Below are positions 2,117-54,505 of a stretch of DNA of 64,000 bases, in pieces (the stretch's first letter is position 1; every line of letters begins with the position of its first letter). Made by a program: the position numbers and the translations under genes. The notes beneath the pieces were generated by a model that saw only the letters and a program-made list of their open reading frames with translations, did not search any database and was not told where the DNA came from. Origin of the DNA: a virus; the UHGV virus genome UHGV-0225074. One strand, given 5' to 3'.

Positions 2117-3289
2117 TCAAAAGGGGATGTCGTCATCGAAGTCCATCGGAGGTTCATCAAAATCCATAGCCGGAGCCTCTTGAGCAGGAGGTGTCGTTAA
2201 ACGCTCCTGGATGGGCTGTGACGGCTTCTGAGATTCTTCCTGTGCCGTTGCACTGGCATAGCTGTAGAACGTCGCTGCAAGCGCATACGCTTCGCGTGTG
2301 GCCTTCTCAAGCTCGTCTGCATCGATGGTCTTTCCTTTGACAGCAATGTTCGTCACCGCATATTTGACAGCGTTACCCACTGTCTGACCAACATCTTTAC
2401 CTTCAGCTTCTGAAAGTTCCTTGATCAGTTTGGTGGTAACATCATGCACTATCTTTCCTGCCGCTTCCACATCACCCTTAAAGCCTGACAGCTTCAGGTT
2501 TACCAGAGCATTCATGGCATGACCAGCAGAAACACCGACAGGGTCGTAATTGCTACGTTTGCCTTTGACACCAGAACCACCGCTGTTCTGACCTGCGGGG
2601 CCATAAGCTTTGAATCCGTTCAGGATGTTACCGTTAGACATATCCACAAAGGCAGTCATTCGTCCACCGACAGATACCTGGGCCAGTTGTTCATCGGAGA
2701 GAACTACACCACCGGGGCCGTTCTTCTCGTCATTAACAGTCGCCAGATTACCTACGATTTCGGTAATCTCACCGAAGATCTTAACACCACCGCCCGACTG
2801 TGCTGCCTGGGCAGAAGACTGCTGTTGACGAGGGGCAGCTTGGCCCGCTTTGCTTTCATCCAGAATGTTGAATGTCTTACCGCTTAAAGTGCCGTTGATA
2901 TAGGTTTTATCCCCATTCTTAGAGACTTTCAGCGGGAAAGATACAACCATGCCAGTCAGAATATCTTTATAACCGGAATCAAACTTGACCTGAACTTTGT
3001 CAGTGTGGCTGGCGTGGAGTTTCTTCTCGCCCATGCCTACCCATTCACCTTGGCCCTGAGGATCGATAACATTGTTGTTCTCATCAACCGCCTGCATCAG
3101 GAAGCTAATGCTGTGGGTTGCTTCGATTACCTTCGCAGGCTGACCGTTACGTGCAGGGATATGGGTACGCTTAACACCGTCCTGATCGGCATTCTTCACA
3201 GGTTTGATGCTGATGAATTTGATGCTGCCTTTTGCGAAGTGGTTTACTTTGCCAGACATCGGGTCTTTGTATTCGTTTACTACGCTCAT
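2117..3289 (-). CDS. SSB-like protein carrying the E. coli SSB C-terminal tip (…MDFDEPPMDFDDDIPF)
   Basis: Start refined to ATG at 3289 (SD AAAGGAGAGAAG; the ORF track extends further to 3412). C-terminal 16 aa reproduce the acidic SSB tip (PPMDFDDDIPF); Gly/Gln-rich linker before the tip, as in bacterial SSBs. Confidence 0.6.
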   Translation of the reverse strand: MSVVNEYKDPMSGKVNHFAKGSIKFISIKPVKNADQDGVKRTHIPARNGQPAKVIEATHSISFLMQAVDENNNVIDPQGQGEWVGMGEKKLHASHTDKVQVKFDSGYKDILTGMVVSFPLKVSKNGDKTYINGTLSGKTFNILDESKAGQAAPRQQQSSAQAAQSGGGVKIFGEITEIVGNLATVNDEKNGPGGVVLSDEQLAQVSVGGRMTAFVDMSNGNILNGFKAYGPAGQNSGGSGVKGKRSNYDPVGVSAGHAMNALVNLKLSGFKGDVEAAGKIVHDVTTKLIKELSEAEGKDVGQTVGNAVKYAVTNIAVKGKTIDADELEKATREAYALAATFYSYASATAQEESQKPSQPIQERLTTPPAQEAPAMDFDEPPMDFDDDIPF

Positions 3290-10422: not shown

Positions 10423-10668
10423 TTACCAGCCAGAAGTATCGACAATCACGCCGCCCAAAAGAAGCAGGAAGAATTCAAGCATAAACATACCGAAACCTGC
10501 TCCCAAAATTTCTTTTGTTTGTTGCTCATGGTCTGCTGTAAATGAAAGCCCCAACGTTGTCAGCATGGTCAGGGCCATAAGGCCTAACACTGCATAAATA
10601 AAATGTGAAAGCTTCATAGGGCGATACTCCAGAGATGCACCGTAAAAGCAGCGTTGATGACTGCACAA
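10423..10668 (-). CDS. small membrane protein
   Basis: 81 aa, two hydrophobic helices. Confidence 0.4.
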   Translation of the reverse strand: MCSHQRCFYGASLEYRPMKLSHFIYAVLGLMALTMLTTLGLSFTADHEQQTKEILGAGFGMFMLEFFLLLLGGVIVDTSGW

Positions 10669-34662: not shown

Positions 34663-35612
34663 TTGACAGCTTCCTCTAGGTTAAAGGGTTTTATGTTCAG
34701 TCTATCGAAAGATTTTACGTTGTCAAGCCAAAATTCATCTTCATACCCTGCGATCGACATCATCATCAGTTCTTCTTCTGTTGGGGAATCCCCCTCCATC
34801 ATACTCTGTAGCTTAGGGTCATATTCCAAGTGGAACATTGTTTCTTTCGGGGAGCAAACGAACATTGCCTTACGTGCCTTATTAGCGATCTTTCTGTTCA
34901 TGATGTTGATAACCGAATGATTTATTTGGCTACAAATACGATCTAATGCGGAAGGCTCAAGATAGTCAGAGTAAAGAACCAAATCACCACTGATCAGCCT
35001 TACATTTTTAAGGGTGAATCTCTCCGCCTTACGCGGGGTCATCCAAGATTGGATAGGGGCATTTTTTTGATAACCGGTGTATTCGACAACCAAACGAAGA
35101 GCAAGAGCATCCCTTGACATCCCCACCAAAAGCTGCTTTATACACTCAAGAAAATACTTAGTACGGTAGTTAAAATTGCAGAACCCACCAAGAAATGCTT
35201 CACCGCAACCGTGACCATAAATATCGATGGAGATTGTTTCTACAAAGCGATGTGTCCAAGGGTCGCCACCCGTAATATGTGATTGGTGGGCTATTTCCAT
35301 ACGTGAAACATTTAGCTTCTGACTCATATCAGAACCATACTCCCGGACATCACCGGAATGCCATTGCCAATAAAAAGGGCCACCATGCGCCGGGAGTTTA
35401 TGGATACATGACAAAAATATGTCCAATATGGGGTTCGAATCCTGTACCCCTTGAAGATAATCTCTAAAGCGGGTGATAGGATTGTCAACATATTTGTCCC
35501 TCTCAAAAGTTGAAAGAAATCTCTCTTGAGCAGCCACCTTCCCTTGTAACAACTTATCTATGAAATCTCGCTCCTCATTCCAAGCTTTTAAATTAATATC
35601 TACTTTGCTCAT
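34626..35612 (-). CDS. hypothetical protein
   Basis: Start refined to ATG 35612 (SD GAGGGTAAG; the ORF track extends further to 35675); 328 aa. Confidence 0.5.
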   Translation of the reverse strand: MSKVDINLKAWNEERDFIDKLLQGKVAAQERFLSTFERDKYVDNPITRFRDYLQGVQDSNPILDIFLSCIHKLPAHGGPFYWQWHSGDVREYGSDMSQKLNVSRMEIAHQSHITGGDPWTHRFVETISIDIYGHGCGEAFLGGFCNFNYRTKYFLECIKQLLVGMSRDALALRLVVEYTGYQKNAPIQSWMTPRKAERFTLKNVRLISGDLVLYSDYLEPSALDRICSQINHSVINIMNRKIANKARKAMFVCSPKETMFHLEYDPKLQSMMEGDSPTEEELMMMSIAGYEDEFWLDNVKSFDRLNIKPFNLEEAVKWYQQTRVVFKL

Positions 35613-35678
35613 AATCTCACTTACCCTCTTATACGAATAATGAACAAAGATACACCACCACTTTTTAGAAATCAAGGG

Positions 35679-35707
35679 TTGACAACCCTTTCCCGAATGG
35701 TGATAAT
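35679..35707 (+). promoter_or_regulatory. strong sigma70 promoter for the plus-strand block
   Basis: TTGACA, 17 nt, GATAAT, 39 nt upstream of ATG 35746; the -35 sits inside the palindrome AGGGTTGACAACCCT. Confidence 0.55.
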
Positions 35708-35745
35708 CATCTTACTAAGAACGGGTAAGACCCAAGGAGTTAGAA

Positions 35746-36612
35746 ATGTCGGTATTACAAGAGTTTACACCTGAAGAAGTTGAAAAGTTGAGGAATCGTT
35801 TGAAGCATAAGAGGTTGAATGCTCGAAAACGGGGCCTTGACTGTGATTTAACAATGCAAGATATGCGTATGCTCGGATTCAAGCTTCTGGGTCACGGCTC
35901 TTGTGATTACACGGGGCTACCTTTCAGTACCAACATCGCGAATGATGGTGAGGAAGCTAACCCAAGGTATCCGTCTATAGAGAGAATCGATGACTCGAAA
36001 GGGTATGTCCGGGGAAACGTCTGTGTTGTTATGGCTCGTGCAAACCAGCTTAAGGACCGTCTGGTTGACAAAACAACTTCGATCCTGATCCAAGATTTGC
36101 TTGACAGGGAAATAGTAAAGGCCATGATGTTGAACATGTCCAAAGACCACCTTGAAAAACTGAAAACCAAATATATCCCACAACAGGAGAACGAAATGAA
36201 TACTGAAGAGACAATGCAGGACGCTATGGATAATGCTGAAGAACATGTTCACAACCAAAAACCTGCGGCGGAAGAGACAAGTGCTCCGAAAGAGGCCCAG
36301 AAGTTGCCTGAGGACGTCTCTGTTGCATTGGCGTATGCCCGTTACTGCAACACCTTCCACGAGGCTGGAATGTCTGTATCGGTCACCTATTCGCAATTTA
36401 AGGCACGATACATTCGCAACACCTGTGCATTATCTAGTGAAAAATTAACTGAAGAACCGAAATCTATTCTGATTCTGGATCTGAACATTGGCTTTGCCAA
36501 AGATAATTTCATCATTGTCTCCAAGAAAATGGAAACTGCTATGACCCAACTGATGATCCAGACGGGCCTGAGCCTGCCAAAAGTTGCAGCAATGCTGAAC
36601 AAGGTGGTGTAA
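35746..36612 (+). CDS. hypothetical protein with degenerate HNH-like segment and acidic C-terminal half
   Basis: SD AAGGAG; segment RYPSIERIDDSKGYVRGNVCVVMARANQLK resembles an HNH core with the His replaced. Confidence 0.45.
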   Translation: MSVLQEFTPEEVEKLRNRLKHKRLNARKRGLDCDLTMQDMRMLGFKLLGHGSCDYTGLPFSTNIANDGEEANPRYPSIERIDDSKGYVRGNVCVVMARANQLKDRLVDKTTSILIQDLLDREIVKAMMLNMSKDHLEKLKTKYIPQQENEMNTEETMQDAMDNAEEHVHNQKPAAEETSAPKEAQKLPEDVSVALAYARYCNTFHEAGMSVSVTYSQFKARYIRNTCALSSEKLTEEPKSILILDLNIGFAKDNFIIVSKKMETAMTQLMIQTGLSLPKVAAMLNKVV

Positions 36613-51788: not shown

Positions 51789-52015
51789 AAATTGATGACG
51801 CGATAACATACGCCACGGATCACGGTTGCAAAGTATCAGATGATTTTATTCGTAAGGGTACAAGACTTAAAGCATTCTATGTTATGGATGGAATAATCCA
51901 GGTTATGATCACTCAGTGCCATAAAGGGGCGCGGCGCTATCGTGTGAACGGCGAAGAGTACAGCCGAGCGCAAGCAATAATTTCCGCTGTAAACTATCTA
52001 AAACAATATGGTTAG
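51782..52015 (+). CDS. hypothetical protein
   Basis: SD GAGGT; last gene of the plus-strand block. Confidence 0.45.
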   Translation: MLKIDDAITYATDHGCKVSDDFIRKGTRLKAFYVMDGIIQVMITQCHKGARRYRVNGEEYSRAQAIISAVNYLKQYG

Positions 52016-52037
52016 CCAGTCATAAGACAACCACACA

Positions 52038-52068
52038 AAGGCCAGGTTTTTACCTGGCTTTTCTCTTT
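52038..52068 (+). terminator. rho-independent terminator ending the plus-strand block
   Basis: GCCAGGT-TTTT-ACCTGGC then TTTTCTCTTT. Confidence 0.55.
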
Positions 52069-52110
52069 GCAGATCCACACCATAAACAACCCACACCACG
52101 GCCCCACCGC

Positions 52111-52139
52111 TATGCAAAAAAGTGCATAATTGAGATCTA
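52111..52139 (+). promoter_or_regulatory. conserved intergenic box, copy C (TATGCAAAAAAGTGCAT-N5-GAGATCT)
   Basis: Third copy; followed by GAGGGTAACCGATAACCACGC, matching copy A GAGGGTATCCGATAACCGCGC. Confidence 0.45.
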
Positions 52140-52397
52140 ACACAAGACATACCATGATGAGGGTAACCGATAACCACGCTCAAAACGCTTTATATTGCGT
52201 TTAATTGTGTGTCGGTCCTGGCTTTTCACCCCACAACCCCACCTAATTAATAACGCATGTTATTAACTGAATAAATCATGCATTTCTATGCACTGGAAGT
52301 GAATATGAGCATAAATCAATATAATGATAACTTTTCTCATCTAACCTATTGTGTGAACTGGTTTTATTGAGCATAAAAATAAAATCTTGTCAAATAA

Positions 52398-52645
52398 AAA
52401 TCGTTCGCGTAATCGTGGGGAGTGGCGCGAGCGTAGCGAGCGACACAATAACACGGGAGTAACTCAAATGATAATCCTTATCATTTTCGTTCGCGTTATC
52501 GTGGCTCGTAGACGCTACGATTAAAAGCGAAATAGTAACATAATTTATCATTACATCCGTAATGATTAGCAAGATCATTTTATCACATCGCCACGATAAC
52601 ACCGATCACGCTCTGCGTGATCGCTCCCGTGTTATTGTGTCGGTA
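52398..52645. repeat. iteron/inverted-repeat cluster in the 1.9 kb non-coding region
   Basis: Perfect 19-bp inverted repeat CGACACAATAACACGGGAG (52441-52459 vs 52624-52642); direct repeat TCGTTCGCGT(A/T)ATCGTGG at 52401 and 52487 with an inverted partial copy at 52589; hairpins AAATGATAA-TCC-TTATCATTT (52466-52486) and TCGTAG-ACG-CTACGA. Confidence 0.65.
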
Positions 52646-53983
52646 TGTGATGGTAACACATGGTTATTATATGCGATCAAATCGCATTAAATCGTGTTTA
52701 ATGGTTGACAAACCATTAAAATGATGATCGTATCTTATGAGAAAAGGCTTGTTTTTGAGCATGATTTTATCTGAAGTGTCAAGTGTTTTTGTTATCGAAA
52801 ATTCCTATCAATGCCTTGCGTAGCAAGGCTTATGTGAGAATAGTTATCATTGCGGAAATGCTCAAAGTATGGCTGTGTGTTAAACACAATTCTCTCTCCT
52901 TGTCAAGCTTTTATTTATAAATTTACAAAATATTTATATTTGCGGAATGATTCTCATTTCGAAATTGAATTCGAAATCGAAATAATAATGATTCTCATTC
53001 GTCGTCTCATTCACAAAACAACCCTAAAACATGAATAATCACACATGAAACTATCACCACAGTAACAGTCACACCATGTAATGACCTGAAGCGGCTGGCC
53101 TATGCGTCACACTGGTAACATTGGGCATTATTAGCTTGCTATGTGTTGTTAGCTAGTGCGCATAACGTGTTTTATGTTAAATAGCGTAATTCATATAAAT
53201 ATAAGCTTGTCAATGACAAATCGTGCTCTAAGCTGGCAAACCATATGCTTGCTATCTGTAACATTTGATAATTATTAGTTTCGGCAAGTAACTATCATGC
53301 CTGAAGAGGCCCCGAGGGACCGGGGACCGGATCGACCTTGCCCATGATATTTTGTAAAGATCCGTAAAGATAGTTGACGCCCGGAGCTGTCCGTCTAGCA
53401 CCGCAGATGGTGAGAACACAATATTTTTACCCAAGGGCCAAGCCATGATATTTTTCGGCAAGTGATATTTTCGGCAGGGGGTCTGTTTTGATTTCTCCAC
53501 GGGGGGAAGGGGTGGTTATACGGGGAAAACAGGGGCCTGTTTACGCGATATGTTTATGGCATCGACACGTTACGGCAATATGTTTATGAAATTATGTTTT
53601 ATCAACATATCGGGGAGTCCCTTCAGATTGTGTGTTAACAGAATGTGCACCATTCCGAGCAGGGGTTGTGATTGTATCCTCCAGCTTCAGGAGACATGGC
53701 TCGTGTTGTGGCTTACATAAAGCATAACAGGGCTGACAGTTTACGTCAACCCTTTTTGTGTGGTAAGCCGCATAGCAGTCTCAACAATCGTCCTTCTTAG
53801 CCACTGGCCCAATAGATACGTACAACATCATCCCATAAGGGATAAGGATCAGGAACGCTGTAATCAGCATCCCCAGCAATAAGAAACCCACGTCGTCCAT
53901 AAAATTCTCCTCGTGTAATTGATAGAGGAAGTATAATAGACGAGCCTGTTTACGTCAAGGTAAATTGATGCGCCACTTTAGAT

Positions 53984-54010
53984 AAAAGAAAAGGAGCCTC
54001 TTCAGGCTCC
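53984..54010 (-). terminator. rho-independent terminator (minus strand) ending the minus block
   Basis: GGAGCC-loop-GGCTCC with T-run on the minus strand; the stop codon of the 54002-54505 gene lies in the loop. Confidence 0.55.
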
Positions 54011-54505
54011 CTTATTGTGTGCTTGTTGTGTGGTGAAACCACCTCGAATTTTCATAACCCCAGTTCTGCTGTACGCCTCTTTTGTGATCCATTCTTCCTT
54101 ACTGGTGTCGTACATATCCAAAATCCTGACGGCCTCTCCTTCTTCTTCACGAACATAGCCTTCCCAAAGGTCCATAGCTACACTGGCAGGAGACCTGTAT
54201 ACATTTAAGATTGTTGTCCAAAAGCTGGGGGATGTTGTGTCCCTGTATTGTTTCAAAATGATCACTGCTTCATGCTTATGCTCTTTGAACCATGTAGCCA
54301 TAATCTCTGCTAAATGAAATACATCTCCTCCGGTGTATTTGATACAGATATCGTGCAAATTACCTGGTAGAATAAAGACCTCGCAACCCTCTCTTTGCGC
54401 GTTCTCAGACCCCTCCGCTATCTTCTTGCAGTAGGCCTTGAGTCCGTCAATATCTTCGATCCACGGAAAGTGTTTAAGTTTTTTCAATTTTGGTGTTTTA
54501 TACAT
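54002..54505 (-). CDS. hypothetical protein
   Basis: 167-aa ORF. Confidence 0.5.
   Translation of the reverse strand: MYKTPKLKKLKHFPWIEDIDGLKAYCKKIAEGSENAQREGCEVFILPGNLHDICIKYTGGDVFHLAEIMATWFKEHKHEAVIILKQYRDTTSPSFWTTILNVYRSPASVAMDLWEGYVREEEGEAVRILDMYDTSKEEWITKEAYSRTGVMKIRGGFTTQQAHNKGA

Follow-up and report, generated by a model that had tools for sequence, protein, structure and literature searches.

What is the function of a long gene-free stretch, dense in inverted repeats and hairpins, that lies between two gene blocks transcribed toward each other? The stretch in question occupies positions 52,069 to 53,983 of the window, that is, the whole 64,000-nucleotide sequence from virus genome UHGV-0225074 analysed here, and a first-pass annotation made from the sequence alone had proposed it as a candidate replication origin or genome-end region. 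The best explanation, to which we give a probability of about 0.75, is that the region is the concatemer junction of a phage genome cut at fixed positions, in which a predicted direct terminal repeat (DTR) is accompanied by a structured module that would act as a packaging or processing element.

Matches to the region with its flanks are found in about 60 phage records, which belong to the subfamily Vequintavirinae. Highest in identity, at 87-95%, are members of Mydovirus (Escherichia phage AV124, Klebsiella DP, KPP-1, KB57, Proteus Mydo and Raoultella Ro1); the Seunavirus phages PVP-SE1, GAP31 and 4MG are 72-80% identical to the region, and a core of the region matches an Erwinia Henunavirus. 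The phage of the window is a Mydovirus-like, and thus rV5-like, myophage of the Vequintavirinae. The window also codes for a T7-like family-A DNA polymerase, a primase-helicase, a Dda-like helicase and rIIA, and neither a terminase nor a phage RNA polymerase was found among the 10 window open reading frames (ORFs) that were scanned against PHROGs.

Probable position of the genome ends

The ends of several close relatives fall inside the homologous region. The GenBank record of DP carries a 514-bp repeat_region at both ends, whose two identical copies map to 52883-53395 at 93-95% identity, and the record begins at AACACG, which is the left boundary of the predicted repeat. In KPP-1, coverage is about doubled at 116,316-116,829, and a 514-bp DTR with T7-type packaging was assigned to this interval by PhageTerm (PMC9862379). 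The published KPP-1 coordinates fall exactly on TGCTA/AACAC and GTCCGTC/TAGCAC (the slash marks the cut), which correspond to 52882/52883 and 53395/53396 of the window, and the KP12 record was opened exactly at 53395/53396. By homology, two records and one paper, as three independent sources from Mydovirus, agree on the same two junctions, which fits ends that are fixed and not permuted.

The junction words TGYTA/AACAC and GTCCGTC/TAGCAC are invariant in an alignment of 11 genomes from two genera, in which their surroundings vary, and so are TAAACAC at the left and TGTCCGTCTA(G/A)CA at the right. Their spacing is 513-514 bp in Mydovirus and 515-516 bp in Seunavirus; in the Erwinia phage (Henunavirus) it is 509 bp. 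A 2.6-kb gap without annotation separates the convergent genes gp158 and gp159 in rV5, which belongs to the type genus. An exact 458-bp repeat is found at either end of the record of Vequintavirus vB_EcoM_YN3 and maps inside this gap, at 104,973-105,431 of rV5. The YN3 and rV5 junctions are homologous (left TGTCA/GACAAG...TTGTCAA; right GTCCGCC/AGGCAGCAC), and these two positions also form the start or the end of several further Vequintavirus records.

By comparison with these relatives, the physical ends of the phage in the window are very probably at 52883 and 53395, with the stretch between them duplicated in virion DNA, and we hold with good confidence that the region as a whole is a genome terminus. 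The likeness to the KPP-1, DP and YN3-type repeats lies in an identity of 92-95%, shared junction words, the same length (513 and 514 bp) and a position between the same convergent gene blocks. The difference is that the ends of those phages were measured or deposited, whereas the stretch occurs once in the window, as expected of any assembly that is circularised or permuted. Terminal repeats of this kind are established biology, and because the repeat is already documented in close relatives it is new for this phage and of a kind already known. Of the two possibilities raised by the first-pass annotation, the genome end is supported by homology with the termini of relatives, whereas the repeats that it listed are not the ends themselves: the terminal repeat shares just 118 bp with the 52070-53000 span that it had marked.

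A "77-bp DTR" is reported for the Mydovirus phage Macy (PMC12827599), which conflicts with the 514 bp of the relatives considered here. The repeat_region of phage naswa was also considered as a DTR and was rejected, as this feature is 34 bp long. Short direct repeats lie across the right junction of the window (53275-53480): CCATGATATTTT at 53342 and 53443, TTTCGGCAAGT at 53279 and 53453, and the tandem GATATTTT(T)CGGCA at 53446 and 53464.

A structured module beside the predicted terminal repeat

Conservation of the region is not limited to the repeat. Per-column identity in the gene-free DNA is at least 0.9 at 52320-52515 and 52580-52640 and 0.85-0.95 at 52880-53060, against 0.2-0.6 in the adjacent coding DNA, so the region is kept across genera more than its flanking genes. 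The first two of these intervals overlap a module of about 250 bp (Table 1), which holds most of the repeats and hairpins that had drawn attention to the locus.

All the repeats and hairpins of the first-pass annotation are present, within 3 nt of where it had placed them. They include the perfect 19-bp inverted repeat whose arms are 164 nt apart (P1), the direct repeats TCGTTCGCGT(A/T)ATCGTGG at 52401 and 52487 with the inverted partial copy GCCACGATAAC at 52590-52600, the hairpins AAATGATAA-TCC-TTATCATTT (H1) and TCGTAG-ACG-CTACGA (H2) and, outside the module, the ATGATTCTCATT direct repeats at 52947 and 52988 and the TCGAAAT repeats at 52958-52981. Small corrections concern H3, which is present with the loop ATCC and had been written one base too long (TCATTAC-ATCC-GTAATGA), and the palindrome TAATGGTTGACAAACCATTA, which starts at 52699 and not at 52696; the perfect hairpin GATCACGC-TCT-GCGTGATC (H4) had been overlooked. 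In a comparison with 100 dinucleotide shuffles of 52070-53000, both the longest perfect inverted repeat (19 bp; shuffle mean 9.3, maximum 14) and the number of hairpins with a stem of at least 6 bp (14; mean 1.3, maximum 6) lie far beyond chance. The longest exact direct repeat, of 13, is not exceptional.

P1 closes a domain that contains H1, then the 11-bp pairing P2 around variable hairpins (H2 and H3 in the window), and then H4. The stretch 52395-52650 folds 8-9 standard deviations better than shuffles on either strand (z = -8 to -9). Twenty-two complete copies of the module were collected from records, IMG/VR and metagenome contigs; exact-word scans gave 8 loci in IMG/VR and 5 in metagenome contigs, which are mostly the same phages and add few haplotypes. 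Nine P1 haplotypes occur among the 22 copies, and the stem is perfectly Watson-Crick in 17 of them, has lost its terminal pair at an insertion junction in three and has a one-base bulge in two. In the Erwinia phage the sequence of P1 is wholly different (CCACCTATAAAAGCAAGTAG and CTACTTGCTTTTATAGGTGG) and forms a perfect 20-bp stem between the same conserved words. P1 and the inner hairpins are kept by compensation across four genera. H1 has at least five sequence versions, every one of which is paired.

Compensatory changes are found in P1, H1 and H4, and one-sided changes in none of them. RNAalifold gives 8 pairs with double changes and no one-sided change; in the trimmed alignment 96.9% of the cells are paired, and double changes occur in 10 pairs, comprising 42 cells. 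The observed covariation was reached by none of 500 shuffles, and slid controls gave at most 3 double-change pairs against the 10 observed. MAFFT misplaced the 3' half of the Erwinia sequence, and that row counts against the structure in the shuffle test. The earlier suggestion that 52441-52642 could fold is therefore strongly supported by the compensatory changes.

Other parts of the module never change: P2, TCGTTCGCGTTATCGTGGC, GAGCG(N)AGCGAGC, TAACTC and GCCACGATAAC(R)CCGAT, to which the embedded words GTTATCGTGGC, GAGCGTAGCGAGC and TAACTCAA can be added. As P2 and these words are fixed even where P1 has been re-written, they point to sequence-specific recognition. Insertions are tolerated in hairpin loops only. 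The rV5 gap holds a collinear module, which lies on the corresponding side of the rV5 repeat at a distance of about 300 bp. It opens with a direct repeat and a GC hairpin; the 18-bp stem GACATAATATAAAAGCAG with TAAC after it comes next, then the inner hairpins and the return arm of the stem, and finally another direct repeat. On the basis of this collinearity the module is a feature of the subfamily. No description of it was found in the literature searched, so that, unlike the terminal repeat, the structured module appears to be undescribed.

Several variants of the module were observed. Two different insertions of about 50 nt, in Mydo (locus 2716-3020) and in JACCDR010845821.1, lie exactly in the H1 loop (homologue of 52475-52477); each consists of small perfect hairpins and leaves the H1 stem intact. 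In SKEB01000071.1 the H1 arms are as in the window and the 3-nt loop is reverse-complemented (GGA against TCC), so that the whole small palindrome is flipped, which is a signature of a template switch or of an inversion within the hairpin. AV124, PVP-SE1 and SEW_6S have an insertion of about 95 nt to the right of the P1 3' arm, which holds an AAAGGGG...CCCCTTT hairpin and ends in a second GTGTTAT(T/A)GTGTC, so that the P1 3' arm is present twice. The P1, H1 and H4 variants are combined as a mosaic and not along genus lines (the ATGCGA/TCGCAT version of H1 is found in AV124, KP12, Ro1, KNP2 and BIS47), which suggests cassette-like recombination within the module. A further hairpin at 52423-52447 (GTGGCGC-GAGCGTAGCGA-GCGACAC) overlaps the start of the P1 5' arm and has a compensatory version in the Erwinia phage (GGTGGC-GAGCGTAGCGA-GCCACC, about 3019-3045 of the locus); it could compete with P1 as an alternative pairing.

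Proposed role and comparison with known systems

From the observed position of the repeat in relatives, its conserved boundaries and the base-paired architecture of the module, we infer the ends of this phage, a protein that binds the conserved words and a role of the hairpins, in the following scheme. The region would be the terminus, or concatemer junction, of a linear, non-permuted Vequintavirinae genome, and the stretch 52883-53395 would be present once per junction in replicating concatemers. Terminase would cut at TGYTA/AACAC on the left and at GTCCGTC/TAGCAC on the right, and the repeat would be duplicated to give a copy at both ends of every virion DNA, which is the "T7-type" of PhageTerm. 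The module would then lie in virion DNA just inside the right-hand copy of the repeat. A phage protein, in the simplest case the small subunit of terminase, may bind the invariant words of the module, and its stems may extrude as hairpins or as a cruciform in unwound or single-stranded DNA, where they would mark the start of packaging and of repeat duplication. As both gene blocks are transcribed toward the ends, the 1.7 kb of gene-free DNA at about 52070-53760 would be cis-acting. That the module is a recognition element for packaging or for processing of the terminal repeat is a plausible proposal, at somewhat less than even odds, which draws on analogy with other phages.

Such a role of the module would parallel that of the pac sequences, promoter and inverted repeat left of the junction in T7 and T3. 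The concatemer junction of these phages reportedly has, in the work of Chung and Hinkle and of Fujisawa, a terminal repeat of 160-230 bp, pac, the phiOR promoter and an inverted repeat to the left of the junction. Fixed ends and a short direct repeat are common to both systems, KPP-1 is T7-type by PhageTerm, and T7-like replication genes are found here; an inverted repeat and promoter-like sites in the unique DNA to the left of the right-hand repeat copy are also shared, as a positional analogy only. However, there appears to be no sequence similarity, though none was looked for, the repeat here is three times longer, a phage RNA polymerase is missing among the 10 ORFs scanned, and the module is far larger (250 bp and five stems) and lies about 240 bp from the cut.

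In Bas54, another member of the Vequintavirinae, no transposon insertion was recovered in an intergenic region of about 2 kb, whose role was left open (HIDEN-SEQ, bioRxiv 10.1101/2025.11.20.689424). Like the window, this phage has a single large gene-free gap between oppositely transcribed blocks, and the rV5 equivalent is the 2.6-kb gap with a homologous repeat and a collinear module; Bas54 differs in belonging to another genus, and its sequence aligns in short words only. From its size and position and from rV5-like records, the insertion-free region of Bas54 is taken to be the rV5-type gap. More tentatively, the module could be an essential cis-acting structure of a new class, common to the whole Vequintavirinae, in which a multi-hairpin domain with a closing stem of 19-21 bp stands beside the repeat and, in single-stranded or unwound DNA or in a transcript, directs repeat duplication, packaging initiation or replication priming. 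Such a structure would explain why the gap of about 2 kb in Bas54 is intolerant of insertions.

A gene-free stretch dense in palindromes and repeats is also associated with the terminal repeat of T5, where the repeat-rich, non-coding "injection stop" region has a proposed function in two-step injection. The T5 repeat is about 10 kb long and carries genes, unlike the repeat described here, and nothing in the window suggests two-step injection.

With known ends, the genome can be written in its biological orientation, and cis-acting DNA can be told from spurious small ORFs. Many phages of Klebsiella, Salmonella, Cronobacter and E. coli that are under development for therapy belong to this group. 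The way in which they package DNA matters for transduction risk and for engineering, as inserts in or near the repeat and the module are likely to be lethal. The scheme offers a testable explanation for the unexplained insertion-free gap of Bas54, and the nine haplotypes of the long stem and five versions of H1 are a natural mutagenesis set for the module.

Alternative explanations

Some points weigh against the concatemer-junction explanation. The ends of this phage are placed by homology alone, at 92-95% identity to phages with measured ends, and the boundaries in those relatives come from PhageTerm or from depositor annotation and not from biochemistry, so they may be a few bases off. The packaging role of the module draws on its position and on an analogy with T7 and T3, and perfect inverted repeats could serve an origin equally well. 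The equivalence of the Bas54 region with the rV5 gap comes from size and position, and the missing Bas54 insertions may partly reflect the need to express the selection marker.

If the module acted as RNA, it would be a structured non-coding transcript of about 250 nt, of a new family whose shape is under selection, and this we consider improbable. A multi-stem architecture with compensatory changes, conserved unpaired words, insertions restricted to loops, very stable folds on either strand and the possible alternative hairpin over the P1 5' arm, which has a compensatory change in the Erwinia phage too, would all be expected of such an RNA, but covariation-supported secondary structure, as found in the module, is common to RNA and to single-stranded or cruciform DNA. 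Rfam 15 has no match at the gathering score in the whole window, and at E <= 5 over 51900-54100 there is one chance-level snoR71 match, outside the module; a tRNA/tmRNA scan found none. No promoter- or terminator-like site around the module is conserved across genomes on either strand (one internal site matches at 9/12), and the T-run to the left of the module on the minus strand is missing in the Erwinia phage. The TTGTCAA/TTGACAA words were rejected as a sigma-70 promoter for the module, as they have no -10 element at a legal spacing, and a promoter is also contradicted by a 53-nt insertion between TTGAGCAT and TTGTCAA in Mydo and Ro1. The nine P1 haplotypes have no G-U pair, which is unusual for RNA and expected for DNA, and P2, being invariant, gives no evidence of pairing. 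Because of the missing Rfam match, conserved flanking promoter or terminator and G-U pairs in P1, we favour a structure at the DNA level, with hairpins or a cruciform in unwound or single-stranded DNA, and find the fold as RNA suggested by the first-pass annotation to be without support. The non-canonical cells, which occur in the outer pair of H1 (six sequences), in the Erwinia H1 and in H4 of 4MG, KP12 and KNP2, are all A-C on the plus strand and hence G-T on the minus strand, a weak hint that the minus strand is the one that folds.

A replication origin in the region or in part of it, which is compatible with a terminus at the same place, is rather unlikely. At such an origin the AT-rich block at 52899-53010 would unwind, the convergent promoters would give primer or activating transcripts, as at T7 and T4 origins, and the phage primase-helicase would use the hairpin module as a single-strand initiation signal. 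The T7-like DNA polymerase and the primase-helicase are indeed coded in the window; the AT-rich block is invariant and has short direct repeats, two promoter-like sites are kept in 11 of 11 genomes, rV5 carries an array of words similar to CTGTTTAC next to its module, the A-C/G-T cells in H1 and H4 hint that one particular strand folds, and the whole of about 2 kb is insertion-intolerant in Bas54, which is more than two cut sites require. Nevertheless, there is no initiator gene nearby, and the repeats that had been taken for iterons are two direct copies 86 bp apart, of which the first drifts among phages, and one inverted partial copy; the AT-rich block lies 400 bp from these direct repeats, inside the terminal repeat. 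No DnaA-box word (TTATCCACA type) was seen on reading the region, the nearest, TTATCACA, being one base short. Cumulative GC skew, with a minimum at about 35 kb (35000-36000, where the gene blocks diverge) and a local maximum at 52-53 kb, was rejected as an origin marker, as it tracks the direction of transcription only and places nothing here. It is very improbable that the region is a functionless buffer between convergent operons, composed of terminators and of selfish or recombination-generated palindromes. It does lie between two terminators, and its hairpin cassettes are swapped mosaically among phages, with one loop flipped in a metagenome contig, but its conservation across genera is above that of the surrounding genes, the long-range stem is maintained by compensation in four genera, the Bas54 region is free of insertions, and the measured termini of relatives inside the region contradict a buffer.

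Borders and other signals of the region

Table 1. Features of the gene-free region and its borders, with positions in the window.
Feature	Position	Strand	Remarks
Intrinsic terminator, end of the plus-strand block of small early-type genes	52041..52068	+	Stem 52041-52058, GCCAGGT-TTTT-ACCTGGC, then T-run TTTTCTCTTT; read directly and found by scan
Word TTGAGCAT, candidate protein-binding site	52367..52374, 52755-52762, 52858-52865	+, +, -	Invariant in the 11-genome alignment
Conserved structured module, ~250 bp	52401..52642		Separate from the repeat, ~240 bp to its left
DR1	52401-52418		Part of module
P1 5' arm	52441-52459		Part of module; conserved TAACTCAA comes next
H1 hairpin	52466-52486		Part of module
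DR2	52487-52504		Part of module; contains P2 5' arm, 52495-52505
H2 hairpin	52506-52520		Part of module
H3 hairpin	52548-52565		Part of module
P2 3' arm	52590-52600		Part of module
H4 hairpin	52604-52622		Part of module
P1 3' arm	52624-52642		Part of module
Palindrome TAATGGTT-GACA-AACCATTA with conserved TTAATGRTTGACAAA	52699..52718	+	-35-like; no -10 at legal spacing
Left boundary word TGTTA/AACAC	52878..52887		Predicted cut 52882/52883; pyrimidine tract and TTGTCAAG come next; DP, KPP-1
Predicted direct terminal repeat, ~513 bp	52883..53395		Homology to DP repeat, KPP-1 DTR and KP12 record break; present once in this assembly
AT-rich (26% G+C), nearly invariant block	52899..53010		Left quarter of repeat; TTGTCAAGC, TTTACAAAATATTT, two AATGATTCTCATT, TCGAAAT triplet
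Sigma-70-like promoter in repeat, rightward	53010..53039	+	-35 TTCACA, 18-nt spacer, -10 AATAAT; 10/12 matches
Right boundary word TGTCCGTC/TAGCA	53388..53400		Predicted cut 53395/53396; DP, KPP-1, KP12
Sigma-70-like promoter, leftward toward right repeat boundary	53721..53749	-	TTGACG-17-TATGCT; kept in 11/11 genomes, hexamers vary
Gene for 39-aa hydrophobic peptide	53781..53900	-	Ribosome-binding site; strong own promoter TTGACG-17-TATACT at 53958-53930
Intrinsic terminator, end of the minus-strand gene block	53990..54013	-	Found by scan; annotated at the homologous place in Mydo

Both flanking terminators of the first-pass annotation are confirmed, and that of the plus-strand block is annotated at the homologous place in Mydo and PVP-SE1. 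Its statement that nothing convincing is coded between them holds for 52070-53760, where the ORFs are not kept in other genera, and fails at the right edge, where the gene for the 39-aa (amino acid) peptide is found; a 38-39-aa ORF is annotated at this place in Mydo, KPP-1, KB57 and DP. ORFs of 62, 70, 82 and 56 aa were rejected as genes, as they are frame-shifted or interrupted in other genera. In public records the 62-aa and similar ORFs are annotated across the repeat, on strands that differ among phages.

The rightward promoter-like site in the repeat is kept in 11 of 11 genomes, with hexamers that vary and a spacer of 17 or 18 nt that compensates (TCGACA or TCTACA with 17 nt), and it converges with the leftward site at 53749-53721 on the right junction; transcripts from the two sites are predicted to start near 53046 (+) and 53714 (-). 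The AT-rich block is a possible unwinding, binding or promoter region. Of the five copies of the word TTGAGCAT in the window, counting both strands, three fall in about 500 bp of this region. The palindrome TTAATAAC-GCAT-GTTATTAA at 52246-52265 is also perfect; it lies outside the module, in the left, conserved portion of the gap. In the rV5 locus, about 10 close-set CTGTT(T/C)AC-like words lie at 10480-10640, between the module and the terminal repeat; the window is without such an array, and its GTTTACG copies are confined to the -35 regions of three promoter-like sites that read leftward (53539, 53739 and 53948).

At the right edge, the small genes of relatives differ; extra ORFs lie between the counterparts of 53760 and 53780 in Mydo, KPP-1 and DP. 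The terminus region is bordered by a sporadic accessory gene, a 167-aa ORF at 54002-54505 on the minus strand with tblastn matches in only 7 phage records; because of this sporadic occurrence, the protein failed as a tblastn locator of the locus in distant genera.

Several public records of the group carry unexpected labels. Among OY757067, OY978784, OY978796 and PQ002171, some annotate a "major head protein", a "tail spike protein" or a "terminase large subunit" over the gene-free DNA, and SEW_6S, a Seunavirus-like phage, is placed in Demerecviridae; errors of annotation or taxonomy are the probable cause. Nineteen "Campylobacter phage" records (host C. jejuni) are 89-94% identical to the rV5 intergenic region and look like rV5-like coliphages under another host name.

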